64,000 bases of DNA from Eledone cirrhosa (Eukaryota): contig OZ024746.1 of the NCBI GenBank assembly GCA_964016885.1, positions 99,882,001 through 99,946,000 on the forward strand, in the 5' to 3' direction. Shown here one piece after another: positions 7,970-43,744 of this stretch (its first letter is position 1; each line of letters begins with the position of its first letter). Made by a program: the position numbers and the translations under genes. The notes beneath the pieces were generated by a model. That model did no database searches and had not been told where the DNA came from. It worked only from the letters and a program-made list of their open reading frames with translations.

Positions 7970-8135
7970 CTGAGTTCTCAGGCAAAACATCCTGAGTAAA
8001 CAACAGTTTGAATAAGCCTGGTATTATTCCTATACTGTTCAGCATAACAATTTGGACAAAAATATCCAGCAATGGAAATATATGAAAAAGGAAAACGGTA
8101 AGTCCAACAGAATGTAATGTTTCTGGGAATAGTAT
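7970..8135 (-). CDS. CHS: Exon H (166 nt), TM segments: ILFPETLHSVGLTVFLFHIFPLLDIFVQIVMLNSIGIIPGLFKLLFTQDVLPENS(G)
   Basis: Acceptor tttctttattacag, donor CAG/gtaata. ETLH..G....F...P.LD.....M.N.....PG is typical of metazoan chitin synthases. Confidence 0.9.
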
Positions 8136-8211
8136 CTGTAATAAAGAAATGAATAATGATAGATAAAACTTTATTTCAACAATTGTTCATGTTAAAAAAC
8201 ATAACTTAGAG

Positions 8212-8734
8212 CAGAGCTTCTCAAATTGGACTCTACTACCCCCTGGGGGAGGGCACTGAGAAGGTCCAGGGGGCAGTAAAGATGATATAAAGCGATAAAG
8301 ATCCCATAATTCCTTGTGGAGTCATAGAGGCACCGTTTAATGGTGTGTCTAGGCCACATTTAAACCTGGCAGAGCCCAACCCTCTCCAGGTCTGAACACA
8401 GCTGATTTTTTCTATATAGGAAGAATCAACCCCAGTACATGACTGGTACTTTTTTTATCAACCTTGAAAGGATGAGCGGCAAAAACTCAGAGTGTCCAAT
8501 GAGGTGGGAGAAATAGTGTGAAGTATTCTCTATATTAAATATCAAATGATACATACTATATATAAATATATTAAAATAGCAAATATATATTTATTATATA
8601 TAAATTAACGATTTTATTTATTATATTTTATTTACAATTTTCGTGTAGACAGGTCTCTCTAGAAATAGGTTTGTGGGGTGCTGAGGGTATTATGTGGCCA
8701 TGGGGTGGGGACTGAAAAAGTTTGAGAACCTCTG
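8212..8734. mobile_element. hAT (Charlie-like) MITE with an internal SINE fragment
   Basis: TIRs cagagcttctcaaa / tttgagaacctctg. Exact 8-bp TSD acttagag on both sides. Confidence 0.85.
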
Positions 8735-8929
8735 ACTTAGAGCAATATTTTTCAAGAGCAATAATTATTTCAAGAACAAAACTTCATTTGCAACAGTTTT
8801 ATCATTCTCAACATGGAAATAAACCTATTTAGAAAATTCCTACATTAAAGCGGAATACAAATTAATAGTTTGTGAATGTATATGAGTGTTTGTGTGAATG
8901 TATGTTTGAGTGTGTATTTTTGTCATCAT

Positions 8930-9612
8930 CATCATCATCATCATCATCCAGCAGCCTCAGCTGAAATGGACTCCACAACTGATCTCCACCTGGGTCTGTT
9001 GTTCATTGCCGTTGCCAAGTCCTGGATTTCAATACCAGAATCTCTGGAGATGACATAGGAGAGCTTGTGTCCCCTGTTATTAGTGACTGCTTGAGGTTTC
9101 CAAAGCACTAATGGGGACACAGCCTCGTAGGTGGTACGATGGCAGTGACAGCAAATCTTACTCTGCTCTTACAACGACAGATATGTGTGGGAGGCTGGCA
9201 TATATTTCTTTCAAAGTCAGATGTCGCCAGCTTATGTTCTGAATGCATTGAAGCAGGCAAGTGTAAGTACCATCAAGGTAGTAGTAGTAGTGTAAGTGCC
9301 ATCAAGGTAGTAGTAGTAGTGTAAGTACCATCAAGGTAGTAGTAGTAGTGTAAGTGCCATCAAGGTAGTAGTAGTAGTGTAAGTGCCATCAAGGTGCTTT
9401 TGTTGTTTGGATGAAAGAGTCCAAGTTTCACTTCCATATAGCAAGATTGGTTGAATTGTTACTTGGAAGAGTCTGATCTTGGTGTGGTGGGAAAAATTTG
9501 AGCGCCAAACTTGATCCATCTTGTTGCAAGCTGACCATACTTGGGCCTTTCTGGTGGAGAAATCCTTCTTAGAGTCCATGATCCAGGACCCAAGATACTT
9601 GAAACCCTAGAC
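8930..9612 (-). mobile_element. RTE-like LINE 3' fragment containing a 29-bp tandem array (9261-9395)
   Basis: KIRLFQVTIQPILLYGSETWTL..LDGTYT; (GAT)n tail. Confidence 0.75.
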
Positions 9613-10207
9613 TTGTATGTCTGTGTTTGTATGTTTATATTTGTATACTCATACATATAAATGTATGCACATACATACACACACACATAAGCATCAGCGT
9701 GTTGAAAACAATCCCAGCGATATAATATGTATGAAGATCAAGATGGTAATTTTGAAGAAACAATATTCTAATAGCTAAAAGTTTTAAATTGCAAATAGCT
9801 TTCACACATAAAGAGAGTGAATTGTAGTTTTATGTCTCATCTAAAATGAATTTGATTGGCACCAAAAAGGAGTGGGTTAAAATAGAATTATAGAATAATA
9901 TTTAAGCTATATAAATATAAATATGTATAATCCTGCAACTCCTGAAGGAGTATTAGGGTGCCATATTGACACTAGGGCACTTTAAAACCTGTTTCAGCCC
10001 ATCGCTCTCCAGGTCTAAACACAGCAGGTTTCTTTCATAGAAGAATAGATAGCGAGCAAGAGGAAGTGAGGAAGAGATATAGAGGTATAATTGATCCCAG
10101 TACTTGACTGGTACTCTTTTTATCAACCCCAAAAGGCTGAAAAGCAAAGTTGATCTCGGTGGGATTTGACCTCAGAGAGAAGAGAGCCGGAACGAATACC
10201 ATAAAGT

Positions 10208-10790
10208 ATTCTATCTGACGTTCTAACAACTCTACCATTCTATCTGACGTTCTAACCACTCTACCATTCTATCTGACGTTCTAACAACTCTACCATTCTA
10301 TCTGACGTTCTAACAACTCTACCATTCTATCTGACGTTCTAACAACTCTACCATTCTATCTGACGTTCTAACCACTCTACCATTCTATCTGACGTTCTAA
10401 CCACTCTACCATTCTATCTGACGTTCTAACCACTCTACCATTCTATCTGACGTTCTAACAACTCTACCATTCTATCTGACGTTCTAACAACTCTACCATT
10501 CTATCTGACATTCTAACAACTCTACCATTCTATCTGACATTCTAACAACTTTGCCATTCTATCTGACGTTCTAACCACTCTACCATTCTATCTGACGTTC
10601 TAACAACTCTCCCATTCTATCTGACGTTCTAACAACTCTACCATTCTATCTGACATTCTAACAACTTTGCCATTCTATCTGACGTTCTAACCACTCTACC
10701 ATTCTATCTGACGTTCTAACCACTCTACCATTCTATCTGACGTTCTAACCACTCTACCATTCTATCTGACATTCTAACAACTTTGCCAAT
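10208..10790. repeat. 29-bp minisatellite, about 20 units, inside a SINE head
   Basis: Unit attctatctgacgttctaac(a/c)actctacc; the single-copy equivalent lies in the SINE at about 43525-43553. Confidence 0.95.
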
Positions 10791-10948
10791 TTGCTGTTAA
10801 GAAACTCTCAGGAGAGCTGGACAAGAAAAGGTTTCCAGAGAAGAAACCCCACTAAAGCAAGAGTTTCAGCCCTTAATTTCTAACAACTCTGCTAATTTAC
10901 TGCCTACAGTGAAATTAACATCATTCAAAATTAAATATGCATACATAC

Positions 10949-11092
10949 CAGAGCCAGAACTGCAGTATTACATCTTTTATCAGAATTGAAAAGAAATTTG
11001 TGAGTGGAAATAATGAAACCAATTCCATATGGAATGCAAATCGCAATTGAAAGCAGTGAGAATGAAGTGTTCTGTTCATGATTTACCTTTCT
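10949..11092 (-). CDS. CHS: Exon G (144 nt), TM segment: RKVNHEQNTSFSLLSIAICIPYGIGFIISTHKFLFNSDKRCNTAVLAL
   Basis: Acceptor cgtttcag, donor CTG/gtatgt, phase 0-0. Pattern A.C.P...F..S....F as in chitin synthase domain A. Confidence 0.85.
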
Positions 11093-11100
11093 CTGAAACG

Positions 11101-11665
11101 ATATATAATATATATTAAAAGGATATATAATATCTATTAAAAGGATATATAATATCTATTAAAAGGATATATAATATATATTAAAAGGATATATAATATT
11201 TATTAAAAGGATATATAATATATATTAAAAGGATATATAATATTTATTAAAAGGATATATAATATCTATTAAAATATAATATTTATTAAAAGGATATATA
11301 ATATCTATTAAAATAATATATAATATCTATTAAAAGAATATATAATATCTATTAAAAGAATATATAATATCTATTAAAAGAATATATAATATCTATTAAA
11401 AGAATATATAATATCTATTAAAAGGATATATAATATCTATTAAAAGAATATATAATATCTATTAAAAGGATATATAATATCTATTAAAAGGATATATAAT
11501 ATCTATTAAAAGGATATATAATATCTATTAAAAGAATATATAATATCTATTAAAAGAATATATAATACCTATTAAAAGAATATATAATATCTATTAAAAG
11601 GATATATAATATCTATTAAAAGGATATATAATATCTATTAAAAGGATATATAATGTACATTAAAA
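11101..11665. repeat. 22-bp AT-rich minisatellite abutting the exon G acceptor
   Basis: Unit atatataatatctattaaaag(g/a), about 25 copies. Confidence 0.95.
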
Positions 11666-11719
11666 TGATATACTGAATACTCTGATGGCTGGATAATCTT
11701 TAAGATTTTCCTCGATGAA

Positions 11720-12458
11720 GCAGGAAAAATGCAGGTTTTCACCCAATGCGGGCCCTAGGGGATCAAGAAAATGAATTTTTTTTATGTGCAATATGCCTTG
11801 AAATTTCGGGAAAATTGGCTAGACGTAACGCCTCCAAAAAGCCCTAAGAAGCTGAAAAAATGAAGTTTTATCACTTAATGCGGGCCCTAGGCCATAAAAA
11901 TTTGCTCGCGGTATGAAGAAGAGACTGACTAATACATAGTTACAATTTCAAGGAAATCGGTTTGACGTAACGCCTCAAAAAAAACCCTAAAAAGCTTAAA
12001 AAACGCAGTTTTTCACCTAATGCGGGCTCTAGGAGATCAAAAAGTTGAATTTTTATGTGCATAACATTCCCTGAAACATAAGTAATACACATGTAAAGTT
12101 TGAAAAAAATCGGTTGGGTACTTCTCGAGTTTTAGGGATTCAAACTCACAGACACACACACAGACAGACATCCTCAGGGAAGTGACGTAATGCAGACAGA
12201 TATTATAAGGGCACGACATTATATGTATGTATCTATCTAAAAAGAGAAAGACTAAGAATTATAGAGAGAGATCGCTAAGTCGCTTAATGTGGTCCCTAGG
12301 GCATCGAAAATTTGAAATTTCTTTTCCTCATAACACGCACGGGACCATAAGTATTAAATGTGTAAAGTTTGAAAACAATCGGTTGGGTGGTTCTCGAGTT
12401 TTAGGGATTTAAACTCACACACACACAGACAGACATCCTCAGTTTTATATATATAGAT
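11720..12458 (-). mobile_element. Non-autonomous Helitron-like element(s) with internal subrepeats
   Basis: Minus-strand start TCTATATATATAAAACTGAGGATGTCTGTCTGTGTG. Repeated aatgcgggccctagg blocks and a duplicated 5' part. Confidence 0.45.
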
Positions 12459-12524
12459 ATTGAAATTATATATAACATCCGATGGATGTGTAATAGTAAT
12501 ATATGCGAATGGCAAAGCAAAACA

Positions 12525-13108
12525 AATTGAGAGAGAGAGACTGAGCATAAGAGGAATCAAATGCTGTATACAGGAGAGAAGAATGCATTGGTATGGACAT
12601 GTGATGCGTATGAATGAAGATAGCTGCATAAAAAGGCGCAGAGCACTAAAAGTTGATGGAAGCCTTAGAGAGGGGAGACCCAAGAAGACCTGAGATGAAT
12701 GATAAAAGCTGATCTTGCCCAATTGCACCTCTCAAAGGCGAGGGCACAGGACTATGACCTCTGGCATTACGCAGTAATACAGAAGACCTGACTTCCCATG
12801 GGTACAAGCCGAAGTATATAGCCAATATGACCCCATCCCCTTCCACTGCAAAGTGGTCGTGGAGGTGTCACGACAAAAAAATCATCCAGCCCACACTGTA
12901 AAGTAGTCGTGTAGGCACCATGGAAAAAAAAGCACTCAGTCCTCACTGTAAATTAGGTTGGTGTTAGGAAGGGCATCCAGCTGTAGAAATCAAGCCAAAA
13001 TCAGTTCCCGTATCAGCCGACTGGACATTGCCCACAACAGGACAACCCGTCTAACCCATGCTAGCGTGGAAGAATGGACGTTAAATGGTGACGATGATGA
13101 TGATGATT
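12525..13108 (+). mobile_element. RTE LINE 3' end
   Basis: IRGIKCCIQERRMHWYGHVMRM..GRPKKT, then a 3' UTR and (GAT)n tail. Confidence 0.85.
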
Positions 13109-13169
13109 AAAAGGATATATAATATACATTTAGTGTATTTAAAGCTAAAATATGTCATTTTTCTTCTTG

Positions 13170-13670
13170 TTTTTCTTCACCCACTTATTCCTGAGAGGGT
13201 AGTTGGCATAGAGCCCTCAAACACTCCTTCCAGTGGGTCCTGTCAGAAGCAACCGTCTCCAACTGGATCCCTAAACAAAGCCCATGGATGTTATCCAACT
13301 ATCTTGCTCGCGATCTACACCTGGGTCTCTTGCCAGTTGGTTTTGACCATAAAATCTGTCCAGCGATTCTTTCCTGAGACATTCTAACCCCATGTCCATA
13401 GTATTGGAGCTGTGATCTCTCAATTCAGAGATTCTAACCCCATGCCCATAGTATTGGAGCTGTGATCTCTCAATTCAGAGAAGTAGCGGCTATACCTGGA
13501 ATGACTCTCTGATCCCAGAGCTACACACTTTATCGAGTAATGTTACTCCAAAGACCTTTTGCAGAAACCCCATTTTGGCCACTTGTATTCACGATATACT
13601 TTCAGTCATTACCCAAGATTTATGACCTTAGGTAAGGGTTGGCACGGATACCAAATTGAAGATATATAAG
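13170..13670 (-). mobile_element. Decayed RTE-like LINE fragment with a 51-bp internal duplication
   Basis: VPTLT..H.SWVMT...IQVAKMGFL..VFGVTLLD-like translation; 13380-13480 is duplicated. Confidence 0.55.
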
Positions 13671-13734
13671 TCATCATTTTAAAAAATCAAATCAGTTAAT
13701 ATTAGTATTTAACTAAGCATACATGCATGAAGAC

Positions 13735-14027
13735 AAGGCCAGATTTAATGAAGGGCAAAAGGGGCAATTGCCCCGGGCATCATGTAGTGCAGGGTCCCAC
13801 CAGTGATGGTCATAGCAATATATTTGTGCCCTCAGCTGGACTTTTTAGTTTTAGGATGGTTAGAAGTTTTTAATTTAATACCTGAATGTATAACTTTTCA
13901 ATTCCAATTACTTGCGCCAAGCTAACTTTGATATGTAAAATTGGTGGGGTATTCTAATATTTGTGTATGAGGGGCCCCCAAAAAGCCTAAAGTACCCCGG
14001 AGCCCCCAAAGGTCTAAATCCAACCCT
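13735..14027. mobile_element. MITE with GC-rich TIRs (Harbinger/hAT-like); partial copy near 21093-21200
   Basis: Ends caaggccagattta and taaatccaaccctg. Confidence 0.55.
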
Positions 14028-14368
14028 GCCTGAAGGAGTCATGGGGGGTATCGCAATGACATACATCATTTCTAGGGTATTTTTAAGCCTGATGGACCCC
14101 ATCTCCTCTCCAGGTCTGAATGTAGCAAAATTTTTCCAGAGAAGGAGAGAGAGAGAGAGAGAATGGAAGTGAGAAAGAGATATAGAGGAAGAATCCACCT
14201 CCAGTACGAGACTGGTATTTTTTTTATTGACCTCAAATGGATGAAAGGCAATGGTGACCTCAGTGGGATTTGAACTCAGAGAGCAGAGAGCCGGAATTAA
14301 TATTGCAAAACTTTCTATTTGACTTGGCTCACTCTTCAATCTATAATTTTCTGAAAAGGCCAATCATT

Positions 14369-16663: not shown

Positions 16664-16841
16664 CTCAACTGCATAAAATTGAACAATCAGAGTAAGGGTC
16701 AGCTTCTGTATTACTGATGAAGTAAGAATTATAAGAAAAAATAGCAGATATAGAAATATTTTGACAACAATAATGAATTTTGAATGTTGAATTTCATCTC
16801 GTTCTGGATCTTCTTCGAACATTTCAAAAATATCCCATGGA
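16664..16841 (-). CDS. CHS: Exon F (178 nt), chitin synthase N-terminal TM region: PWDIFEMFEEDPERDEIQHSKFIIVVKIFLYLLFFLIILTSSVIQKLTLTLIVQFYAVE
   Basis: Acceptor ttttctctcctccag, donor GAG/gtatct, phase 2-0. WDxF...K..(hydrophobic)..V..K.TL resembles the start of metazoan chitin synthase domain A (insect WDVF...VVSKGTLLFM). Confidence 0.87.
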
Positions 16842-17349
16842 CTGGAGGAGAGAAAACAAACAAGAAAGGTATTAGAGAAGAAATAATAAATCTGAAAGAA
16901 GGCAGATATTTCAGAGGAATGGTATAGTCGGTTATATTCAGCCTCACTATTACAGTGTTATTTATTTCATTGAAGGCTGAATGACTACATTAACAAAAGT
17001 GGATTTCAACTAAGAATAAAAATACCAAAAAACAACTTGGCAGACAGACTAATAATAATACGCCCTGAATATCTGAGGCTGCAGGTAGCGACTTGATGTT
17101 CATTTCAACAAATTTTCCAGTTAAATAACATTAATGACTGAGACTCCAAGAAAATAATAATAATAATAATTGTTTCTACTTTTTGGTACAAGGCCAGAAA
17201 TTACCCCAGTACATTACTGGTGCTTTATTTTATTGACCGAATAAGGATGAAAGGCAAAGCTAACCTCGGCAGGATTTAAAATCAGAACATAAAGGGACGT
17301 AACTATGCTGGAAAACATGGTGTCCGACTCTCCACCGATACTGCCAATT

Positions 17350-17990
17350 ATTATAATAATAATAATACTTTCATTTATTGGCCACAAGGGCCGACATATA
17401 GGGGACAATACAAAAGACTGGGACAGTGGGGCTTTACATATACAACGTGTAAACAATATAGATAACAATAACAAAATAACAAGAAAAATACAAACAAGAA
17501 AAATTCCCCAATAGGGGGGATGACCACCCAGGGTTCACTCAGGTACCCCACCAATCCTGAACGACCCAATGCTTTGAGAGCACCCGGGAAGGGCACACCT
17601 CCCCTCCTTAAATTCACCCACCAACAGGCGCATGGTCAGAGTAGGCCCACTCACACGGGCCATTCTCTCCACATTCACCCAACTTTCCGCAAATGTACCA
17701 GGGGAAAGCTCTTAACTCTCGACCCTCACCTTCCTTTCCAGGTGAAACTTGAAAAAGTTGATGAGGGATTGGCCGAAGAGAAAAGTGTCAGTCTTCAGTC
17801 CTTTCAACCTGGTCCACCACACAACCTCTTTTGCTACTGCCACCAGACAGAGGAAAACTGCCTACCATCCCTGACCAAAAGAAGGCAGCGGATCAATCTT
17901 CACTATGGACTCGGCTGATAACCGAATCCATCCTACATGTGACAACAGCTGTTTGACATAAATCCACAAGTCAGTAATGCTTCGGCATTT
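17350..17990 (-). mobile_element. Tx1/L1-like LINE 3' fragment
   Basis: Reverse-complement homologue of 34530-35172, with AATAAA and an (ATT)n tail. Confidence 0.8.
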
Positions 17991-18059
17991 TGCATTCATC
18001 TTTCCAGACTGAATGTCTAGATTGATCTTATGAGTAAAAATCAGTTTTAGTGGTGATAT

Positions 18060-19621
18060 TTAACCCTTTATCATTTACATTACTTTCATCATCATCATCA
18101 TCAGGTTTAGCGTCCGTGTTCCACGCTTGCATGGGTTTGGACGGGGGTTTTCCCACTTGAGGCAAGAGTGGTTGTCTTGCTCGCATAGGACTGTCTGGCG
18201 GGTTTTCTACAGTTGGATGCCCTTCCTAACACCAACCACATTTACAGTGTGGGGCTGGGAGGTTTTTACCGTGTTGCCTACACGGCCACATTACAGCGTG
18301 GACTGTCTGGCGGGTTTTCTACAGCTGGATGCCCTTCCTAACACCAACCACATTTACAGTGTGGGGCTGGGAGGTTTTTACCGTGTTGCCTACACGGCCA
18401 CATTTACAGCGTGGACTGTGTGTTTTTTGTCGTGACACCTACACGATCTCATTTGTTTCGGCCTGGATGTTGTGGGACCAACATAACTTTACATTGAAAG
18501 GGCGGTGTGGGTGGGGTGGAGGTGGTGGGACGGGGGTGTGTTTTGATAGAGGTGCCTACTGACTGTAGTAGGTATTTACTTTGTATTTAGGTAAGGCGGG
18601 TCTTCTCTATTACTGAGTACCGCCAAAGGTCTCGGTCCAGTGACATTGTCTTGGAGAGGTGTAAGCGTGTGAGGTCGGAATTTATCAGCTCGTCCCATGT
18701 TTTTCTGGGTCTGCCTACTCCGTGGCTACCGTCTATCTTTATTGCCCTGCACTTTGTTATACAGCTGTCGTCTTTCATGCGCATCACGTGACCGTACCAA
18801 CGTAGCCTTCTCTCGAGTAAACAACATCTGATCCCTCTTATTTCTAATTTTTTTCTTAGTTCGTTTATGCTTTGCCGTTCACGTATATTACTATTGCACA
18901 TCCAGCGGAGCATGCAAGCTTCGTTCCTCTCTAGTCTGCGTATATCCTCTGCACACAATGCCCAGGTCTCACTGCCATGCAGCATTGCTGTTCGTATGCA
19001 GGCATCGTATAACCTGCCTTTCATTTTTAGGGAGAACCCTCTAGCGGCTAATAGTGGTATAAGCTCTCTGAACTTTTTCCATCCAGTTCTGACTCTAGCT
19101 ACTGTACTTTCAGAGCACCCTCCCCCACTGCTGATTTTGTCACCCAGATAACGGAAGCTGTCCACTATTTCTATAGAACCCTCTGCGCAGTTGAAGGAGC
19201 TAGTATTTTGTGGGCACTTGCTGCTACTTATTGCACCAGAGCACCGGCCACATGTAAAATCTATGTTCTTAGTTAGCTTACCTGTGATCCCACTACATCT
19301 TTTATGCACCCATACTTTGCATTTGGGACATAAAATGGAGTTTCTACCTACGCCTTTCCTACACACTGAGCATGGCCATTTCCCCGATGGGACCGCCGCC
19401 TTATTTTCTTTCCTACAAACTAGAACTTTAGTCTTAATATTACTTTAGTCTTAATATTACTTTATATTTACTATTGTATTTTCACAATATTATTTCACAT
19501 AATATTGAATCTGATATTATTTATTTTAAGAACCATACCTTAACATCAGTATGCTCGTTTGAACAGAAAGAGGTGACAGAATGCTGGCTAGAAATGGCCA
19601 GTTTAAACGCTAAAGTGTTAA
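18060..19621 (+). mobile_element. TTAA MITE split by an RTE insertion
   Basis: Left end ttaaccctttatcatttacattac. The MITE body resumes at about 19450 and ends aaacgctaaagtg-ttaa. Confidence 0.75.
18086..19440 (-). mobile_element. 5'-truncated RTE LINE (ORF 18587-19366)
   Basis: Cys-rich PHD-like CxxC..WVHKRC, FRYLG, LHGSETW, RLRWYGHVMR, GRPRKTW; (GAT)n tail. Confidence 0.93.
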
Positions 19622-21259: not shown

Positions 21260-22110
21260 AATCACTGATGGCGGCTCATGGGTGGATGTTATTTATCTTG
21301 ATTTTTCTAAAGCTTTTAATTCTGTGCCACACAAAAGACTTATGGCAAAACTCTCTGCAATGAGTGTGATGATCTTTATAACTGGTTGAAGTTCTTCATT
21401 CTTAGCCATAAAGAGGTAGTCACGGTTCGAAGACAGCATTCTTCACCCTATGAGATGACATCTGGTAAACCATAGGGATCTGTTCTTGGTCCCCTTTTGT
21501 TTATTTCATATATTAATGACATAGATGCCAACTTAAAGAATGCCACAGTACTGAAACATGCAGATGACATCAAGCTGTACCTTGAGATGAAAAGGATAGA
21601 TCCTGAACACTATAGATCTTTCCTGCAATCAGACCTGGATACAATGCAGCAATGGATCACAGACTGGCAACTCAAGCTCACTATGGACAAGTGTACCACC
21701 ATGCATTTTGGGCGGAAAAACCCAGCGTTCACATACTCCCACCACAACACTAATCTCAAGAAGTCTTCTTGTGAACATGACCTGGGTATTATTGTCAACA
21801 GCGATTTGCATTGGATAAAGCATGTCTCTAAAATTGTCAAGAAGGCCGAGGGTGTCTTAGCATCACTCAGTAAGACCTTTGTCAGCCACTCTCCAACTAT
21901 CTATTTAAAGCTGTATATAGCTATGGTGCGGCTATACTTAGAATTTGCATCACCAGTCTGGAACCCCATCTTGCTAAGAACATTGACATCCTGGAAACTG
22001 TTCAGAGACGTGCAACAAAGCGAATACTCTCCATCAGGCATCTACCATACTCTGAACGCCTTGCTTCCATAGGCATGGATACATTAAAGCTCTGATGTCT
22101 GGCAACTAAC
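21260..22110 (+). mobile_element. CR1-like LINE RT fragment, disrupted
   Basis: VDVIYLDFSKAFNSVPH, HADDIKLY, KCTTMHFG, LEFASPVWNP. Confidence 0.88.
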
Positions 22111-22114
22111 TTGG

Positions 22115-23016
22115 TGGGAACAAGGGTAGGAATTGAGTTTATTGAGGAATTCCAGATACAAGTAGGAGTACATCAAGGTTTGGTCCTCAGCTCGCTCTTG
22201 TTCATTATAGTCCTCCAATCCATAACAGAGGAGTTTAAGACTGGCTGTCCATGGGAATTTCTATATGCTGACGATCTGGTTCTTATAGCAGAATCAGTAG
22301 AGGAGCTAGAGAATAAATTCTGGCTATGGAAACAGCAGTTGGAAGCAAGAGGACTGAGAGTGAACCAAGCTAAGACAAAAGTGTTGATGAGTAGAAAAGA
22401 GAACAAAACTCTGATTCCGTCAAGGAAATGGCCATGTTCGATATGTAGAAAAGGAGCTGGCATAAATTCTATAAAATGCACACAATGCAGATCCTGTGTA
22501 CACAAGAGATGTAGCGGGATAGCAGGCAAACTAACAGGTAGGGAGAAATAAGTATGCAGTAGATGTACAGGGAAATTAGACACATTTTTCAAATGAGGGC
22601 GGGTGCTATAGAAGTGGTGGATAGCTTCCGGTACCTAGGAGATCAGATTAGCATAGGAGGGAGGTGTTCCGAGGCCATAGTATCTAGAATAAGGATGGGT
22701 TGGAAGAAGTTTAGGGAACTGCTTCCTCTGCTGACGAAGAAGGGTTTCTCCCTGCGTACAAAAGGCCGGTTATATGATGCCTGTGTGAGGAGCGTGATGC
22801 TGCATGGTAGTGAGACATGGGCAGCAACTGCAGAGGATATGCGACGGCTGGAGAGAAATGAGGCAAGCATGCTCCGTTGGATGTGCAATGTCAATGTGCG
22901 TGAACAACCCAGTATGGATGTGTTGAGAGTGAAACTGTGTCTGAGAGGGATAGAATGTAGTGTGCGAGAGAGGAGACTGCGGTGGTATGGGCATGTGATG
23001 TACATGGAGGATGACC
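22115..23016 (+). mobile_element. RTE LINE fragment
   Basis: GVHQG, YADDLVL, LHGSETW, RLRWYGHVM. Confidence 0.9.
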
Positions 23017-24276: not shown

Positions 24277-24670
24277 CAGTCATGGGAAACCTGCGGCCAG
24301 TTTCACTTTCTGAATGACATGCCTAATTTCAAAATTGCCTGAAATTTTTTAGTAGTGCCGCCCACCTTATGATGATCCACATCCTATGTGGTCCACCTTA
24401 TGATGAGTCACATCCTATGTGGTCCACCTTATGATGATCCACATCCTATGTGGTCCACCTTATGATGAGTCACATCCTATGTGGTCCACCTTATGATGAT
24501 CCACATCCTATGTGGTCCACCTTATGATGAGTCACATCCTATGTGGTCCACCTTATGATGAGTCACATCCTATGTGGTCCACCTTATGATGAGTCACATC
24601 CTATGTGGTCCACCTTATGATGAGTCACATCCTATGTGACCCATTACTCTAAAATGTTTGCCCACGTCTG
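24277..24670. mobile_element. hAT-like MITE containing a 31-bp tandem array (24362-24640, about 9 units)
   Basis: TIRs cagtcatgggaaac / gtttgcccacgtctg; TSD ttttacac/ttttacat. Confidence 0.75.
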
Positions 24671-24782: not shown

Positions 24783-26443
24783 TATATTTGTATAGCTAAA
24801 AGTAAATCCCTATACTTAGCTTTTGTTGACTTGGAAAATGCCTTTGACAGAGTCCCACGCCACATTATCTGGTGGGCTCTCAGAAAACTAGGTGTTGATG
24901 AATGGCTTGTGAGAGCTATACAAGCCATGTATAAAGAAACAGTCAGCAAGTTAGAATTAACAACGAATATAGTGAAGAGTTTAGCGTAAAAGTCGGTGTT
25001 CATCAGGGCTCTGTCCTTATCCCCCTCCTCTTTATTATTGCCCTTCAGACTATAACAGAAGAGTTCAAGACCGGCTGCCCATGGGAACTCCTATACGCAG
25101 ATGATCTAACGCTCATAGCTGAATCAATGGCTGAACTAGAGAAGAAATTCCAAACATGGAAGCATGGCCTAGAATCAAGAGGCCTTAAAATTAACTTGAC
25201 TAAGACTAAAGTTCTAGTATGTAGGAAGGAAAATAGGGCACTGGTCCCCTCTGGGAAATGGCCATGCTCAGTGTGTAGGAAAGGAGTAGGCAGAAACTCC
25301 ATTTTATGTCCCAAATGCAAAGTATGGTGCATAAAAGATGTAGTGGGATCACAGGTAAGCTAACTAAGAATATAGATTTTATATGTGGCAGGTGTTCAGG
25401 TACAATAAGTAGTAGCAAGTGCCCACAGGATACTAGCTCATTCCATTGCTCAGATGGTTCTATAGAAATAGTGGACACCTTCTGTTACCTGGGTGACAAA
25501 ATCAGCAATGGTGGAGGGTGCTCTGAAAGTACAGTAGCTAGAGTCAGAACGGGATGGAAAAAGTTCAGAGAGCTTATACCACTATTGGCCGCTAAAGGTT
25601 TCTCTCTAAAAATGAAAGGCAGGCTGTATGATGCCTGTATACGAACAGTAATGTTACATGACAGTGAGACATGGACATTGTGTGCAGAGGATCTACACAG
25701 ACTGGAGAGGAACGAAGCATGCATGCTCCGTTGGATGTGTAATAGTAATATACGTGAACGGCAAAGCATAAATGAACTAAGTGAGAAATTAGGAATAAGA
25801 GGGATCAGATGCTGTTTACTTGAGAGAAAACTACATTGGTATAGCCACGTGATGCGCATGAAAGACGACAGTTGTATAAAAAAGTGCAGGGCGATCAAAG
25901 TAGATGGTAGTTACGGAGTAGGCAGACCCAGAAAAACCTGGGACAACTTGATAAATTCCGACCTCACACACTTACATCTCTCCAAGACAATGTCACAGGA
26001 CCGAGATCTTTGGCGCTACACAGTAATACAGAAAACCCGCCTTGCCTAAGTACAAAGTGAAACTTACACTCAGTAGGCACCTCTTAACCAAATATACACC
26101 CCAACCCCCTACCCCATCCCCACCTACACCACCCCTTTCGATGTAAAGTTATGTTGGTACCAGAACATCCAGTCCTAAATAAATAAGGTCGTGTAGGTGT
26201 CACGACAAAAAAACACACAGTCCACGCTGTAATGTGGCCGTGTAGGTAACACGGTAAAAACCTCCCAGTCCACACTGTAAACGTGGTTGGGGTTAGGAAG
26301 GGCATCCAGCCATAGAAAACCTGCCAGACAGTCCTACACGAGCAAGACAACCAATCTTGCCTCAAGTGGGACAATTTCCGTCTAAGCCTATGCTAGCGTG
26401 GAAAATAGACGTTAAACGATGATGATGATGATGATGATGATGA
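24783..26443 (+). mobile_element. 5'-truncated RTE LINE, frameshifted; same subfamily as 18086-19440
   Basis: AFVDLENAFDRVP, YADDL; C-terminal ORF 25306-26049 closely matches 18587-19366; (GAT)n tail. Confidence 0.93.
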
Positions 26444-29769: not shown

Positions 29770-31370
29770 AGGAAGGATCCAAAGACGTGGTTGATAGCTT
29801 CTGCTACTTAGGTGACTTAGCAGAATAAGGAAAGGATGGAAGAAGTTTAGAGAACTACTCCCACTGTTGACAACAAAAAGGTTTCTCCCCATGAAACACC
29901 TGTGTGTGGTGTACAATGCTGTATGGTAGTGAAACATAGGCTGTAACTGCAGGGCACATGTGGTGCTAGATGGTAGTGAAACATAGGCTGTAACTGCAGG
30001 GGACATGCGGTGCTACATGGTAGTGAAACATAGGCTGTAACTGCAGGGGACATGTGGTGCTACATGGTAGTGAAATATAGGCTGTAACTGCAGGGGACAT
30101 GTGGTGCTACATGGTAGTGAAACATAGGCTGTAACTGCAGGGGACATGTGGTGCTACATGGTAGTGAAACATAGGCTGTAACTGCAGGGGACATGTGGTG
30201 CTACATGGTAGTGAAACAGTCTGTAACTGCAGGGGACATGTGATGCTACATGGTAGTGAAACATAGGCTGAAACTGCAGGGGACATGTGGTGCTACATGG
30301 TAGTGAAATATAGGCTGTAACTGCAGGGGACATGTGGTGCTACATGGTAGTGAAACAGGCTGTAACTGCAGGGGACATGTGGTGCTACATGGTAGTGAAA
30401 CATAGGCTGTAACTGCAGGGGACATGTGGTGCTACATGGTAGTGAAACAGTCTGTAACTGCAGGGGACATGTGATGCTACATGGTAGTGAAACATAGGCT
30501 GAAACTGCAGGGGACATGTGGTGCTACATGGTAGTGAAATATAGGCTGTAACTGCAGGGGACATGCGGTGCTACATGGTAGTGAAACATAGGCTGTAACT
30601 GCAGGGGACATGTGGTGCTACATGGTAGTGAAACATAGGCTGTAACTGCAGGTTACATGTGGTGCTACATGGTAGTGAAACATAGGCTGTAACTGCAAGG
30701 GACATGTGGTACTACATGGTAGTGAAACATAGGCTGAAACTGCAGGGGACATGTGGTGCTACATGGTAGTGAAATATAGGCTGTAACTGCAGGGGACATG
30801 CGGTGCTACATGGTAGTGAAACATAGGCTGTAACTGCAGGGGACATGTGGTGCTACATGGTAGTGAAATATAGGCTGTAACTGCAGGGGACATGCGGTGC
30901 TACATGGTAGTGAAACATAGGCTGTAACTGCAGAGGACATGTGGTGCTACATGGTAGTGAAACATAGGCTGTAACTGCAGGGTACATGTGGTGCTACATG
31001 GTAGTGAAACATAGGTTGTAACTGCAAGGGACATGTGTCAACTAGAGAGAAAAGAAATAACAATGTTTCATTGGATGTGTAATTTAAGTGTGAGAGAAAG
31101 GCAGAGCTTGGATGAGTTGAAGGAGAAGATGGGTTTAAGAGGTGGTGTGCAGGAGAGAAGACTGCATTGGTATGGACATGTGATGTGCATGGACAATGAC
31201 TGATGGGTGAAAATGCCAGGAAATCCCAGTTGAAAGAGTTTGCAGTATAGGACGGGCTAGAAAGATCTGGACAGAGGTTCTAAGAGTGAGCCTCAAATTG
31301 CTAAGACTGGCAGAGGAGATGATGAAGGAACGCAACAAGTGAAGAGATTACATGCTGAGAAGGACCCATT
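29770..31370 (+). mobile_element. Decayed RTE fragment containing a 47-bp tandem array (about 29917-31038, about 24 units)
   Basis: Unit tgctacatggtagtgaaacataggctgtaactgcaggggacatgtgg equals the RTE LHGSETWAVTAEDM coding segment; RTE sequence flanks both sides. Confidence 0.9.
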
Positions 31371-35172: not shown

Positions 35173-38100
35173 ACACAGACACAGACCCTTTGTCTTCCAG
35201 CAGTGAAGATGAAGGAAAACCCAAAAGTGCCAAAAAACAAAAGAGAAAACTCACCAAAAAAAAAAAGCCCCAACAAAACACAAAAACATACACAAAAAAA
35301 TACAGACACCACTAACGCAAACACTTCCCCAATAACATCAACACCAAAATCAACAACACCACCCCCACAATCACCGAAACACAAACAACCTAAACAAACA
35401 CACGAAGAAATAAACACACAGACACCTGAAATTGTAGACACCACACCTACAACAAACACAGACATATCCGAAACAACATCACCAAAACCATCACCACCAC
35501 AGTCACCAAAACGAAAACAAATAAAACCACACCAATAAAACATTAAAAACTTTGTGCTTGTCAGAAGGGCCAACAATAAATTGATGGCCCTCTTAGCACG
35601 AAGCGAGGACATCCAAACATAGGGGGAGATCTTTGAACTGAACACATTTTGCGTGCCAGAAGTTTTGCTCCTGGTGCGAATGTCGCTCAATTCCTACAAA
35701 GAAATTCGAGAAAGCTTTCCTCAAGACATGGGAACCCCGAATGTGAAACCCACATCAAGACTTTTAAAGGGGTTCCCAAAAGAAACCTCACCAACCTTGG
35801 AGGTCGAACCACCCGACCTTCACAAGACCCCGGGAGGTATGTAAACCTTCCCTCTCTCTCTTTTAGCTTGCCAACATGGCGATATTAAGAGTAGGAAGGT
35901 TAAATGTTCGCAGCCTGGGGTCACCCTGGAAGCAGGGTCGCCTGCTCAACGATCTCAGGTCTCTGGAAATGGATGTGATTGCCGTCAGCAAGACCAGGAT
36001 TTCCGACATGCGCGCACTAGCCCCCATTTCGACGACTATCAGATCTTCGCATCTATTAGCAGGCCGGGAATGGGAGGTGGGGTGGCAGTGCTGTTTAGGA
36101 AAGGTCTGGATCTCGAGGTAAGGTCAATCTTCCGGGATCCGGACGGTAAGTTGGTGGTCCTGGATGTGAGCAATAGCGAAGGTAGTGCCTTTAGACTGCT
36201 GGTTCCTACTGGGGCCGAACGACCGTACTTTAGGCGCCTGGAAACCTTTCTGGGTACGTCTCGCCCTCTACTGTTAGCGGGGGACTGGAACGGCATCTTA
36301 GACGCACGCTGGGATTGTGTGGAAAGCTGATAGGGGGGGGGGGGGCAAAGGCCTCAAACACCTAATCAGCCAGTTCCGACTGTCTGACAGGTATCGACTA
36401 GATTTCCCCAATGCGCCAGTGTGGACCAACCGCATAGGATCATCTAGATCGTATATAGACAGGATCTTTATTAGGAAAATAGATAGAAATAGTGTAGGCT
36501 GCCCAATCTTTAAAACGGTCGCCTATTCAGATCACAAATTTGTGATCTGCTTAGTCGACCTAGATAAAACGCGTAGGTTGGGACCGGGCTACTGGAAGCT
36601 GAACATGTCATTTCCGGCACGTAAGGCTTACAAGGGGGATCATCAACAACAGATGGTGGAGGCTCTCAAAAGAGAGATTAGAGTAACTTCGATAGAGTTC
36701 AGCAAAGAACTAGCGTTAGAGAAAAATAGAAAGGACGGGGAGCTGGTAGATAAGTTAGATGAGGCTATTGGTAGTAGCATTGCAGCTGACATGCTAGCGG
36801 CGAGAATGGCATTAGACCATTTCTTCAATGCGAAACACGAAGGTTGCATTGTCAGAGCTAAGGCGCGTGCACTGAGAAACGAGGGAACCAAAGCTGTTAG
36901 ATGGGCCCCCGTGGCAGAGGCGCAGCGTGATAATAAAACCACAATTTGGTCTTTGGTGGACCGAGACGGACACGAGATAGGCGATTCCAAGCCGATGTAT
37001 GAGGCCTTTCGTCAGCACTTTGCTCAGTTGTTCGGAGAGAGTGGCAAGTCAGAGAGAGTAGCGGCTTTCTGCGCATCTCGACGGTCGACACTGAGCACTG
37101 CGAAAGGCCGATTACTTCAGCCGAAATTCAGGACGCCCTTGTCGGCCGCATGAAGCGCAAGTCACCCGGTTTGGATGGCCTGCCCTATGAACTTTACATA
37201 AATATGCCAGACTTGTTCCCCGATCTCCTCGAAACACTCTACTGCAACTAGCAGTAGAATGGGAGTATTCGCAGTTCTGTGAGCAGGGGAGTGGTGACGC
37301 TGATAAGGAAAGACGAGAACAAGAGGGATACATTAGAAAACTTCAGGCCCTTAACTCTGCTCAACACAGAGTTTAAAATTTTGGCCAAGCTGTTAGCAAA
37401 GAGATTGGCGCTTGTCGTCGAGGATTTGGTTGGGGAGGTGCAAACTTGTACAATCCCAGCCAGGTCCATACACAACAATCTCCACCTCATGCGATACATC
37501 ATAGAGAGGGTAGGGTGTAAACCTGGCTTCGGTGGGGCACTGATCAATTTAGATCAATCAAAAGCATTCGATAGGGTCAACCATTGGTATCTGAAGTTTG
37601 TCCTCAAAGCAGCTGGCTTTAGCCCTGTCTTCAGAAGCTGGATCGCTGCAATGCACAGCGGCACATGCTCGGTGGTCAAGGTTAATGGCCACCTCTCGGA
37701 ACCATTTCGGCTCTCCCTATCGGTCCATCAAGGGTGCCCTCTCTCTTCCCTTCTGTACGTATTGGCTCTCGAGCCTTTACTGCGGAAGCTGGAGCTGTTG
37801 CAGGGCATCCCACTCGAACCAGGATGTGGAAAGGCGGTGTCGGCTTATGCGGACGACATCACTGTGATGGTGTCGGACACCTCAGAAATCGAGGTGGTCG
37901 GCACCTTATTGAAGGAATATGAAAGGTTGACAGGAGCCAAACTTAACCCAGAAAAGTCGGTGGGCTTGCAGCTCGGAACCTGAAGTGGCAAGCCTATGCC
38001 ACCCAACAACGCCGTGGGGCGCTGCACGGACAGAATGGTAAAGTTGTTCGGGGTTTGGTTCGGACCAGACCTCCAGGTGGAAAAGAATTGGGACGAGGTA

Positions 38101-39499
38101 ACAAGCAGAGTAGCCAGTCTCACCCAAAAATGGGCTGGGAGGAAGCTATCACTGAAAGGTCGCGTGGAGGTGGCGAATGCGTACATCGCATCCGTCATCT
38201 ACTACCGCCTGACCGTCGTGCCTTGCCCCCGTCCGCGCTTCATCAAGTTGGCACGGCTCCTCTTCAAATTCTTGTGGAAGGGACAAGTTCCGTTGGTGAG
38301 GCGGTCCATCTGCTGCCAGCACCCTCTACACGGAGGGCTGGACATGCCGTGGCTAAGGATGTGCAGACATACGCTTAGGCTGCGGCATCTCCAAATATTC
38401 TGCCTAAACAATGAATAGATGTTGTCGCCGTTTATCAGACAGGCCTTTCCGCAGCTCGTTTCTTTGACTGAGCTGCAGTCCTGGGTCAAGAAGAGACCGA
38501 GACTGGGTGACTGGCACCTGGAATGTTGCCAGGCACTCACTGCTCTCTACCAAGCAGACAATGCGATCAGTGGAACTTCCACTCTCAAGTTCTATAGAGG
38601 ATTAGTGGTGGGCAAGTGCTATGATGCACTCGGGGAGGCTCTGGGCCTTGACGAGGTCGAACTGACCAGTCTGTTCCGGAGGACTTTCGAGCCGGTGACG
38701 ATGGACAATTTCCAGATTTTCCTCGCTTGGCAGTGCTACTGGGGGCACTGCCAGTTCGGGATAAAATCTACAGGCAGGGAAGTGCTGTCAGACGGACCTG
38801 CCCAAGATGCGTGCAGAGCGACGAAACCATTCTGCACACACTTGTCCAATGTCCGTGTATTACTGACCTGTGGAGTTATGTCGAACAGCTACTGTCGCAT
38901 ATGGAATGATCCAGCTATCGGCCGAGTCTATAGTGAAGATCAACCCACCGCCTTCCTTTGGTCAGGAAGAGCAGGCAATTTTCCTCTGTCTGGTGGCCGT
39001 TGCGAAAGAGGTTATATGGTGGACCAGATTAAAAGGACTGAAGACAGGCACTTTTCTCTTCGGCCAATCCCTCATCAACTTTTTCAAGTTTCACCTGGAA
39101 AGGAAGGTGAGGATGGAGAGAGAAGTGCTGCCCCCCCCCCCCCCCCCCCAGTACATTTGCTAAAAGGTGGATGAATGTGGTGAGAATGGCCCATGTGAAT
39201 GGGCCTACTCTGACCATGCGCCTATAGGTTAGCTAATTTGAGGAGAGGGGCGCTCTCTCTGGATGCCATAGAAGCGCAGGGTGGTTCAGGATTCGTGGGG
39301 TACCTGAGTTACCCCTGGGTCGTCCGCCCCCGATAGGGGAATTTATTTTGTTATATTTATACATAGTTTATTTTATATTTTCATTGTTAAATTGGTTTAG
39401 CCATTGTGCACTTTTACTCGACCTTATTGTAAATCCCCACTGTCTGCATCTTTGTATTGTCCCCTACATGTCGGCCCTTGTGGCCAATAAATGAAATCA

Positions 39500-39540
<41 letters not shown>
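35173..39540 (+). mobile_element. Near-complete, disrupted Tx1/L1-clade LINE (APE endonuclease, RT, CCHC)
   Basis: LNVRSL, GDWN, SYIDRI, YSDH, WKLN; NFRPLTLLNTEFKI, LDQSKAFDRV, QGCPLS, YADD; CPRC..ETILHTLVQC. Confidence 0.92.
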
Positions 39541-42500
39541 GTTGTTCTTTGAGTCTCACTCATTGATGTTATTTAACTGGAATGTTTGTTGAAATGAATA
39601 TCAAGCCGCTACCTGCAGCCTCAGATATTCAGGACGTATCGGAGGGTTCTTGCTGTTCCCAGCAAGCATGCCTTTTGAAGCGTTCCAAAAAGCGGGGCGG
39701 GACCAATTTTCTTTAACCATCCCTGGAAACTCTTTGAGATAGTACCTAGTGCGCCTATGACAATCGGGATCACTTTGACTTCATGGCAGTTCCAAATCCT
39801 TTTTACCTCCCACTTTAAGTCCTGGCATCGGTTAATTTTTTCCCTCTCCTTCTCTTGCACTCTCGTATCGAATGGGCAGGTTACATCCACAATCAGGCAC
39901 GATCTTTTTTCCTTGTCCAAAACCACCAGGTCAGGTCTATTGTGTTCCAGTTTCTTGTCCGTCTGTATCCTAAAATCCCACAACACCTTCATCTGATCGT
40001 TTTCTATCACTGACACTGGCTTATGCTCATACCACTTCTCAGAATGTGGTAAATTGTTTACTTTGCATAGGTGCCAGTGAATCACCCTGCCCATCACATC
40101 ATGTCTCCAGCCTTTATAGTGAGTCTGGGCTAGGTGTTTACACTCGGATACAATGTGAGCCACAGTCTCCTCTCTCTCTCCACAGATCCTACACAGTGGG
40201 CTATCCTCCACCTTGTAAATATGGTGTTTCACCCACTTCGTTTTGAGGGCCTGCTCTTGCGCAGCCATTAACATTCCTTCTGTAACCTTTTTAAGGTCTC
40301 CTCTTTTCAACCAGTTCCATGTCTGTGGATCTCTAAATTCAGTTTTCTCAAAGAAGGTACTATGAAGGGATTTTTCATGAAGGTTGCTCTTCCTCCTTGG
40401 ACATCCCCTGGTCTATTGTTCTCTCCTTCAGTACAATTCTGAGCATGCTCCCTACTATCAGTCACGTATTTGTGTAGGTTGTTTTTCTCCCTCTGAACAC
40501 AGTCCTCTATGCTGATAAGACCTCTTCCACCTTCAGATCTCCTTAAGTAGTGTCTATTGACATCACTCCTCTGGTGGAACATGTTGTAGATAGTCAATAG
40601 CTTCCTAGTCTTCCTATCCATTTCTTTTTGTTCAGCAACATTCCATCTCAGAATTCCCGCACTGTACCTAATAATAGACACAGCTCGGAAATTTACTGCA
40701 CTTATGACATTCCTACTGTTCAGATGTGACTTTAATATGCTCCTTACTCTCCGAATGTATTCAGATCTTATCAATTCCTTTGTTTTTTTGTTCTTGAGGT
40801 CATCAGCCTCCAGAACACCTAAATATTTGTATCCTTCTTCAGTGTCAATTTCCTTTATCTTCTCACCTGTTGGTACCTGGATTCCGTTGCTTCTGCTCAA
40901 TTTACCCCCTCCTCATCACAAGGACTCCACAATTATTAACACCAAATTCTATAAATATATCATTGCTGAAAATACGGACAGTGTCAACAAGCACATCCAA
41001 CTCCTTCTCACTGCTCTCCCTTTCCCAACTTGTATTCTGCTCTCAGTTTTCGCAGTATAATGGTCAGGGGGATCAGGGCAAGGACAAACAACAGAGGGGA
41101 CAAACTATCTCCCTGGAAGATACCTCTCTTGATCTTCATGCCTCCCAAGGATTCTCCACCCGATGTTAACTCTGTTTTCCAGGACTTCATACTTTTGCTC
41201 AACAACTGTCTGATGTTATCTGCCACCATGAAGATCTCTAGGCTTTTGGTTATCCAAGAATGAGGCACCATGTCGAATGCCTTTTTGTAGTCGATCCATC
41301 CCATGGCAAGACCAGTGTGTCTCCTCTTGCAATTCCTCATTACCATCTTATCAATAAGTTACTGGTCCTTTGTACCACGGGACTTCTTTTGGCATCCTTT
41401 CTGTTCATCCGGTAACAAGTTGTTTATGTGGAGGTGATGGTAGATTTCCTCAGACACAATGCTTGTTAACAGTTTCCACATTACGGGCAGACATGTGATA
41501 GGTCTATAGTTGGTAACATCATTACCCTTGATTCGGTCTTTCATTACCAGAACTGTGGTACCTTTTGTCAACCACTCTGGTACCTCACCTGACATCAAGC
41601 AGTCATTGAACATGGTTGTCAGTTTCGGGTGGAGGGATGTTAGATTTTTAATCCAATACCCCTGCACACCATCTGGGCCTGGTGATTTCCAGTTGGTTAG
41701 TTTTCTGGCCTGCCCCTTAAGAGTTTCAACTGTGATACTCAAATCAGTTTGTTGGTGTGCCTGTTCACTAATCTCCTTTTGTACTGTCTCAATCCACACT
41801 GCCTGAATATTATGTTCAACATCCTGCTCCCATATTTCTATCCAGAATGTCTTAGTCTTTCCCTTCAAGCTGTCCAAACAACATCTGGTTGTTGTCAAAC
41901 ATGCAGTTCTGTCTATACTGACTGACTCTGCTCTCATATCGCCTAATCTTTGCACTCTTTGCTACAATGCGTTGCTTCAGTTCCTTTATGATAATATTTA
42001 GCTTTTTGCTCCTAGTTTTGTACTTTATTTCCAGTCTATTTTTAGTGTCTATGTTTTGTAGTGTCCCATTCAGTAGGGACTCAAGCTTTCCAATGTCATT
42101 TCTCATTTCCCTGATTTGACCATTCAGTCGTTTCTTCCACCAATGTTCTGATCTTTCTTGTTTGTTGTTTCCTCTCGCTTTTATGCCAAGTAATTTCCTC
42201 ACCGCATTTGCTGTTGCTTTGAGGATATTGTTGCACTGGTGAAGGTTCCTCGCCTCAAGGTATGGGATGACTTTGTTTACCTTAGCTGTTGTTTCTTTTA
42301 ACTTTTTCCTGTCTACAAATCTTAGGTTCATAGGTTTTCCACTATCATTGTTCATTTCATCTACCACTAAGTTTAGGATATCAACCAAATCTTGTCCTAG
42401 CCCGTCAGCATTCATTTCCTCAATGGCCGTATCTTTGTTCCAGGTATTATTTATTTCAGCATTCAGATCATTGTCTGCTTCGGATGCTTCCTCCGTTCTC

Positions 42501-43124
42501 TCAACCTCTTCACCTTCATTTCCCACTGGCTCGTTTGCCTGGCATACTCCACTCTTCATTTCCAACCTAATCTCTCTGCTCAGTTCCTCCAGTTCCAGCT
42601 CGCTTATCCACCCATTAGTTCTTATTACCCGAGCCTGCCTGGACAATTTTTGTTCATCTAATTGTTCCAGATGTTATGCATCCGTTTCCTATAGCCTTTT
42701 TCCTTGGGGTTACTCTTCAGGTAACATTGCATAACAGTTCTATTCAATTCTTTCGTCCAGTTGGTTCTGGTCCCTTTCCTTCTTCTTCTTCCTCCGACAC
42801 CAGCAGTATTTGGTTGACAGCCAGGTCCCTGCTGCTGAGCCAGGGAGCACCTGCTGGGTGAGAGTCTGTCACATGACATTCTAGTCTCCATTTCACCGTT
42901 ATTCGAACTGTTTAGGTTCGACATTTAAACACTCTTATCGAGGATTGGTGAATGTATGGTTACATAACCACCGGGGATTTCACCACCCCCAGTGATTTTA
43001 GCGTGGCACTATCACGCTATAGACGAACATAAATAAATAAACAAATAAATAGGTAAAAATTTAAAAAAATAAACATAAGTTTCATTGTAATGTTTGAATG
43101 TCTGACTTAGTTTGTTTTTTTTAA
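39541..43124 (-). mobile_element. Near full-length, dead R4/Dong-clade retrotransposon (RT plus restriction-like endonuclease)
   Basis: NWTKELN..VMQCY....GYRKRM..IW, NYRPITCL, WIDYKKAFD, GIFQGDSLSP, CRIC..ETVAHIVSEC, RPDLVV..VDVTCP; (TAA)n on both flanks. Confidence 0.88.
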
Positions 43125-43144
43125 ATTATTATTATTATTATTAT

Positions 43145-43175
<31 letters not shown>

Positions 43176-43581
43176 GGTGGTGGTGGTGGTGGTGGTAGTA
43201 GTGGTGGTAGTATTAGTAGTATTAGTATGGTATAGTCACATAACACCTGATAGAGTCGTAGGGGCGCCATATTGTCATACAGCGTTACTTGGACATTTTA
43301 AGCCTGGTGGAGCCCACCCCTCTCCAGACCTGAGTACAGCAGATTTCTTCCAAAGAAAGATAGAAAGAGAGAGGGAGAGGAAATGAGAAAGAGATATAGA
43401 GGAAGAATCGACCCCAGTACTTGACTGGTACTTTTTTATTGACCTCGAAAGGATGAAAGGCAAAGTTGACCTCGGCGGGATTTGAACTCAGAGAGCAGAG
43501 AGCTGGAACTAATACCGCAAAGCATTCTATCTGACGTGCTAATGATTCTGCCAATTCACCGCCTTAGTAGTAGTAGTAGTA

Positions 43582-43615
<34 letters not shown>

Positions 43616-43688
43616 CAGCAGCAGCAGCAACAGCAGCAGTAATAGTAGTAAAAGGCCATGACAAACTAGAAAAGATATATATATTTAC

Positions 43689-43744
43689 CTGATGAAATGA
43701 AGTTTTGAGTGATCAAGTTTTTGAACAAGCAGTTTCAATGAATT
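43689..43744 (-). CDS. CHS: Myosin-motor chitin synthase, exon A (56 nt): NSLKLLVQKLDHSKLHFI(R)
   Basis: Acceptor ttttattccag, donor AG/gtaaat. Ends in phase 2 and joins exon B to give HFIRCIRSN, matching the myosin motor motif HFxRCIKPN. Confidence 0.85.

Follow-up and report, generated by a model that had tools for sequence, protein, structure and literature searches.

A probable single gene joining a myosin head to a complete chitin synthase in the octopod Eledone cirrhosa

We describe here what is very probably one intact gene of the octopod Eledone cirrhosa, whose product connects a myosin head through an acidic linker to a complete chitin synthase. ATP-gated binding of the head to actin is likely and would hold the enzyme at a chitin-secreting patch of membrane. 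The stretch of DNA that was analysed (the window, 64,000 nucleotides at G000:C6:99882001-99946000 of the 3.0-Gb assembly) lies wholly inside this gene, from position 1 to position 64000. The gene model, built with the Octopus vulgaris protein P0121 as guide on the genome stretches adjoining the window, occupies G000:C6:100052017-99824956 on the minus strand and spreads 33 coding exons over 227 kb, with GT-AG ends at every intron. Its coding sequence of 6558 nt specifies 2185 amino acids, and the sole stop is the last codon. Exons 1-14 lie above the window (upstream in the gene), exons 15-22 within it and exons 23-33 below it (downstream). The introns are rich in retroelement pieces and satellites.

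The eight exons within the window, in its own coordinates and in the order of the gene, are as follows.

Exon A (exon 15 of 33), 43744-43689, minus strand: 56 nt, phase 0/2, amino acids 580-598; motor helix and strand preceding SH2/SH1.
Exon B (exon 16), 33099-32950, minus strand: 150 nt, phase 2/2, amino acids 598-648; SH2-SH1 helices with His627 and Glu630.
Exon C (exon 17), 28901-28793, minus strand: 109 nt, phase 2/0, amino acids 648-684; converter, aligning with myosin converters.
Exon D (exon 18), 24175-23819, minus strand: 357 nt, phase 0/0, amino acids 685-803; end of the converter helix, then acidic Ser/Thr-rich linker.
Exon E (exon 19), 20330-20224, minus strand: 107 nt, phase 0/2, amino acids 804-839; remainder of the linker.
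Exon F (exon 20), 16841-16664, minus strand: 178 nt, phase 2/0, amino acids 839-898; WDxF motif, together with the synthase's first predicted transmembrane helix.
Exon G (exon 21), 11092-10949, minus strand: 144 nt, phase 0/0, amino acids 899-946; second predicted transmembrane helix (from hydropathy).
Exon H (exon 22), 8135-7970, minus strand: 166 nt, phase 0/1, amino acids 947-1002; ETxH motif and transmembrane segment.

All eight are preceded by AG and followed by GT, their phases fit, and their 1267 nt give 422 codons with no stop, as a preliminary description of this DNA had proposed. That description had the exons begin at the SH1/converter region; its progression from motor through acidic linker to membrane part stands, and its starting point is shifted, since SH2/SH1 lie in exon B, which comes after exon A, and the converter is in exon C. 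As a control, AG/GT-bounded pieces of equal lengths were scored for being open in the needed phase (58/131, 20/135, 25/117 and 3/149 for the lengths of exons A to D; 30/143, 12/133, 23/149 and 20/141 for E to H). The product of these open fractions over the eight lengths is 1e-7, a figure that takes no account of the reader's choosing among candidates, and the real evidence for the exons is therefore their homology together with the splice joint described below.

A Pfam scan of single exons covered seven of the eight (exon A, at fewer than 20 amino acids, was left out) and gave matches above cut-off in two: Myosin_head in exon B (E 8.6e-9) and ChitinSynthase_IV_N (PF23000) in exon H (E 4.4e-6). 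The transmembrane exon H thus belongs to a chitin synthase N-terminal family, which answers the earlier question of whether these exons match some other family. Exon C returned just two weak and unrelated Pfam matches below cut-off. When searched by tblastn with P0121, seven of the eight exons align, in order, at identities of 72% for A (E 1.2), 52% for B, 62% for C, 33% for D, 67% for F, 53% for G and 59% for H; the P0121 residues matched are 576-593 (A), 648-681 (C), 681-751 (D), 821-878 (F) and 881-923 (G), and exon E is without a match in this search. An equivalent of exon A, likewise of 19 codons, is present in a paralogue at 43 Mb on C11.

Outside the window, profile matches on the minus strand place Myosin_head exons above it and Chitin_synth_2 exons below. 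On one strand and within one open frame, 77 kb separate the window from the P-loop exon upstream, and 41-57 kb separate it from the catalytic exons downstream. This bears out the expectation that both the P-loop and the catalytic domain would be found beyond the window. The switch I and switch II exons are likewise upstream, and the DGD, EDR and QRRRW exons downstream. Single-exon Pfam matches elsewhere in the gene are to Myosin_head (E 5e-18 and 4e-18, making three single exons for this family in all) and to Chitin_synth_2 (E 1.9e-10). The last large exon has as its best match the O. vulgaris chs-1-like protein P0121 (2151 amino acids, myosin head plus synthase; E 1e-134); a search among representative sequences returned no close octopod match. 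The part of the model with the weakest homology support is exons 13-14, which carry loop 2, the variable loop preceding exon A.

The predicted protein has intact nucleotide-binding motifs in its motor and intact catalytic motifs in its synthase. The head contains a P-loop (GESGSGKT, residue 96), switch I (NWNSSRFGK, 146) and switch II (DMSGFE, 361), and alignment places a relay and a converter in it as well; that the nucleotide-site motifs are all intact fits a working motor as well as it does a tether. The acidic, Ser/Thr-rich linker encoded by exons D and E is about 150 residues long, and the 140 residues from 701 to 840 comprise 27 D/E, 15 K/R and 34 S/T. A simple hydropathy scan identifies 14 hydrophobic segments, seven before and seven after the catalytic core, where DGDVD (1471), GEDRW (1574) and QRRRW (1612) are found. 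With motor and synthase motifs intact in one open frame over 33 exons, the initial identification of the gene as a myosin-head chitin synthase holds.

Two features of the head bear on how it may work. An IQ scan past the converter found no IQ motif; neck IQ motifs were recognised by a relaxed pattern in just 3 of 28 myosin-chitin synthases, which rules out the missing IQ as a special trait of this gene. In the SH1 helix, the usual Glu and Arg/Lys are replaced by His627 and Glu630. At the second of these sites the 27 alignable myosin-chitin synthases of the named alignment (the Argonauta row, whose model is without the exon concerned, was left out) are basic in 19 cases, neutral in five and acidic in three, all three of them octopod. 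In the SH1 variability scan, whose 'CS' class was defined by text matching and probably contains a small number of ordinary myosins, an acidic residue likewise occupies the site in 3 of 28 other (ordinary) myosin helices. The site thus varies among myosins, and the SH1 change was ruled out as proof of a dead motor.

The closest annotated relatives are P0121 itself (O. vulgaris chs-1-like, CAI9724533.1) and the O. sinensis protein XP_029637692.1 (P0428). Each is a single model of 2151 amino acids, so the suggestion that this copy could easily be split into two models was not borne out in these two species. BLASTP against P0121 gives one alignment over residues 1-2139 at 57.7% identity, with 63% in the motor, 26% in the linker, 56% in the N-terminal membrane part, 77% in the catalytic core and 50% in the C-terminal part. 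The two Octopus proteins share with the Eledone protein the domain order, an acidic residue at the SH1 site and the lack of an IQ motif; the Eledone protein differs from them in having His instead of Asp at 627, in being 34 residues longer and in its poorly conserved linker. Two Logan relatives, P0122 and P0123 (2214 and 2228 amino acids), contain both domains on contigs of ~7.1-7.2 kb.

Judged by its sequence, the gene is a lophotrochozoan myosin-chitin synthase of the class-36 type. In the synthase tree (FastTree, 49 proteins, 748 columns) it is sister to P0121 (support 1.00), then to the two relatives (1.00), and the wider mollusc clade to which it belongs (1.00) also contains proteins of limpet, oyster, mussel, scallop and clam, with deep nodes unresolved. 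The motor tree (FastTree, 36 motors, 724 columns) recovers the same mollusc clade (0.96) and the same sister relationship to the octopus orthologue (1.00). Within a motor set assembled without myosin XVI, class 80 and myosin-17, and after one myosin II row was dropped as mis-cut, the CS motors group with myosin III (0.99), and they group with one another at a support of 1.00 without Lingula and 0.36 with it. The octopod stem branch in this tree is more than twice as long as that of its sister (0.79 vs 0.34). This long motor branch of the octopod copies and their charge-reversed SH1 helix together are a hint that the head serves as a tether and not as a mover.

This placement agrees with the published picture, as far as the consulted part of the survey by Zakrzewski et al. 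(2014, PMC3942024) gives it, of three lophotrochozoan groups of myosin-linked synthases (A-C) with heads related to myosins III and XVI, arising by a fusion independent of the fungal one. The CS motors have been named class 36 (PMC5583752) or placed in class XVI (PMC3942036) in the portions of those papers available to us. Lophotrochozoan myosin-chitin synthases have an N-terminal motor near myosin III, a type II synthase with helices flanking its GT2 core, and several paralogues per genome; the Eledone gene has all of these and shows no difference in architecture. The Atrina rigida protein ArCS1 shares the motor, a GT domain with DGD and QRRRW, many transmembrane helices and flexible links, and in the available text of a preprint (10.64898/2026.08.31.748318) its switch loop contains CCPGC. 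Since the Eledone gene and its clade have CSPGC, the gene is probably a paralogue and not the direct orthologue of Atrina CS1, as judged from this one motif, the ArCS1 sequence itself being outside the comparison set; CCPGC is found in the paralogue at 43 Mb on C11 and its clade. The fungal class V/VII myosin-17 synthases, such as Ustilago Mcs1, likewise fuse a myosin head to a chitin synthase and are described in the accessible parts of PMC3942024 and PMC3942036 as an independent fusion with another myosin class and with Cyt-b5 and DEK_C domains. The Eledone gene is not a member of that fungal family: its head lies beside myosin III in a tree built without myosin-17, and Pfam found neither Cyt-b5 nor DEK_C in the orthologue P0121.

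Chitin synthases polymerise UDP-GlcNAc in a GT2 core and thread the chain through the membrane. As a member of this family, the Eledone core would do the same, the chain passing through the transmembrane helices. The head likely binds actin of the cortex or of microvilli in an ATP-controlled way, which would set the site of chitin exit, presumably in the epithelia that make the animal's chitinous parts; the preliminary description had suggested beak, radula or sucker cuticle as possible sites of action. Among the excerpts consulted, a myosin-chitin synthase of a snail is reported to be radula-specific (PMC5995198), and chs expression is reported for aculiferans only (PMC12046283).

We lean towards the head being an anchor or short-range positioner rather than a long-range transporter, because it lacks an IQ lever arm, is joined to the synthase by a flexible linker, has an altered SH1 helix and has a precedent in fungal Mcs1. 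The Mcs1 analogy is one with an independent fusion involving another myosin class. His627 probably occupies the place of the conserved SH1-SH2 Glu of muscle myosin. PMC3364171 gives a fall of ~80% in ATPase and sliding on mutation of that muscle residue, and for Mcs1 PMC3252574 describes the capture and tethering of vesicles with no motility in vitro.

That the head is instead a true force-producing motor, which carries the synthase, or vesicles containing it, along actin or pulls the growing chitin fibre, is possible, although we incline against it. The head has the P-loop, both switches, the relay and the converter, the motor is better conserved relative to O. vulgaris than the membrane parts (63% vs 50-56%), and the ArCS1 head has been modelled on the motile Myo1c in what could be consulted of the preprint (10.64898/2026.08.31.748318). 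The SH1 change need not stop movement, because an acidic residue occurs at the site in the 3 of 28 other myosin helices noted above. Against a mover are the lack of an IQ motif past the converter and the pairing of His627 with Glu630 in the very helix where the muscle mutation is so damaging. It is unlikely that the octopod head has gone further and lost mechanical coupling to become a nucleotide-gated actin clamp, as its acidic SH1 site and long stem branch might suggest; were this so, the chitin synthases of a single octopod genome, among them the C5 paralogue with its degenerate switch II and the one at 46.6 Mb on C11 with a canonical helix and an IQ motif, would range by degrees from motor to clamp.

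Evidence that motor and synthase are transcribed together comes from sequencing run X4, in which contig record 9 (6977 nt, depth 126) contains exon E whole and spliced to exon F, the two adjoining with 3382 nt skipped between CT..AC ends. In this way the E-F part of the junction check proposed in the preliminary description was answered. The joint is absent from run X1, which covers introns. Runs X1 and X4 are both from one study, no run is registered as RNA, and X4 was chosen on a word share of 0.58, equal to exon D's share of the stretch concerned; we infer that X4 is a transcriptome because its contig is spliced. In the 5' direction from exon E, record 9 extends for 2601 nt, against 2409 nt of coding sequence in the model, and in the 3' direction from exon F for 4091 nt, against 3864. 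A 37-nt opposite-strand piece at window start 19456 has the same contig depth as record 9, and a repeat fragment 36-72 nt past the model stop codon equals this piece in start, length and strand. Because the flank lengths and the 3' repeat fit the model, record 9, an assembled contig and not a single molecule, very likely reaches from the motor as far as the 3' UTR. One of the seven joints in the window (E-F) is read directly, and the others rest on homology and length arithmetic. An apparent joint of 16664 to 19456 on opposite strands was rejected as an inverted extra exon, being the repeat fragment just past the stop codon, and an alternative F-G joint with a higher junction score was rejected since record 9 ends exon F at 16664.

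These data make it highly improbable that the fusion is only apparent, either because two neighbouring genes are involved, one for a tail-less myosin and the other for a plain chitin synthase, or because the main transcript skips the link. The linker, just 26% identical to that of O. vulgaris, speaks for such an arrangement; however, the 2601 nt upstream of exon E in record 9 match in length the motor with a short leader, the protein is a single model in two Octopus species, the P0122 and P0123 contigs carry both domains, and the motor and synthase trees are congruent. A pseudogene or dead enzyme, to which the retroelement- and satellite-rich introns and the long motor branch might point, is scarcely credible given 2185 codons without stop or frameshift, intact catalytic motifs, a GT core 77% identical to that of O. 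vulgaris and a spliced contig.

The intact fusion gene is not alone in its genome. A Chitin_synth_2 profile search gave 17 matches at 11 places, at least four of which are preceded by myosin exons on their own strand:

C6, the gene of the window: myosin-chitin synthase paralogue, one of at least four.
C11, 43.1 Mb: ~90% identical to O. bimaculoides chs-1; CCPGC in the switch loop.
C11, 46.6-46.8 Mb: matches an Argonauta model; canonical SH1 helix and an IQ motif.
C5, 20.2 Mb: closest to Lottia and Leptochiton proteins; degenerate switch II.

The gene had been thought a possibly divergent paralogue. It is indeed one of at least four, with a long octopod motor branch, but it also has plain orthologues in other molluscs. 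A literature search, with most subscription journals outside its coverage, found no paper on octopus myosin-chitin synthase paralogues.

The myosin-chitin synthase gene type has reportedly been known since 2006. Myosin-linked chitin synthases were surveyed in 2014, in the part of PMC3942024 available to us. Since the type is known and surveyed and two Octopus species already have an annotated orthologue, our result is one more correct gene model of an ordinary mollusc type, and the architecture is, as first described, not new. What the four paralogues offer, with their differently worn motors in one shell-less mollusc, is a test set for whether such heads move or merely anchor, and one that also allows asking which of them builds beak, radula or cuticle.

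The introns of the myosin-chitin synthase gene that spans the window are rich in repeats.

Intronic repeats of the window gene (window coordinates)
1-5023, satellite, 60-bp unit, 84 copies, 95% match
10208-10782, minisatellite, 29-bp unit
11096-11672, minisatellite, 22-bp unit
18590-19444, minus strand, retroelement fragment
21476-22069, plus strand, retroelement fragment
22096-22548, plus strand, retroelement fragment
24362-24638, minisatellite, 31-bp unit
24935-26046, plus strand, retroelement fragment
29923-31037, minisatellite, 47-bp unit
35845-39171, plus strand, broken non-LTR retroelement
39624-42924, minus strand, broken non-LTR retroelement
44570-44928, minisatellite, 73-bp unit
45764-64000, satellite, 38-bp unit, 478 copies inside the window

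The two broken non-LTR elements lie back to back in the intron between exons A and B, the first containing an RVT_1 domain (37258-37980, E 9.6e-27) and the second a weak zf-RVT match (39624-40412). The four further fragments are high-copy, as the very high contig depth over them shows; a PHD-like finger is present in one (E 8.7e-7) and RVT_1 in one (E 1.4e-10). The 60-bp satellite has one plus-strand frame that is free of stops across >1700 codons. The 38-bp satellite runs on above the window. A fragment resembling the neighbourhood repeat of the 38-bp unit is also found in the 3' UTR of the gene.

Elsewhere in the assembly, two chitin synthase exons at 68.35 and 68.50 Mb of C2 (L006 and L007) share an identical 172-aa open frame in opposed orientations 150 kb apart: either the sequence was duplicated recently in inverted orientation, or the assembly contains it twice by error.

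Two loci are myosin-chitin synthase paralogues of the window gene.

C11:46.61-46.78 Mb, paralogue (L062-L079)
C5:20.19-20.24 Mb, paralogue (L054-L061)

The C11 paralogue, which matches the Argonauta protein model P0128, has a canonical SH1 helix, encoded by an exon (46697648-46697803) absent from that model, together with an IQ-like motif. In the synthase tree it joins a chiton protein whose model has no motor. The synthase motifs of the C5 paralogue are intact, while its switch II reads DLTGHME and its P-loop GDSGSGKT. From this reading of the sequence its motor appears degenerate, and the C5 paralogue would be a better candidate than the window gene for a non-motile head.
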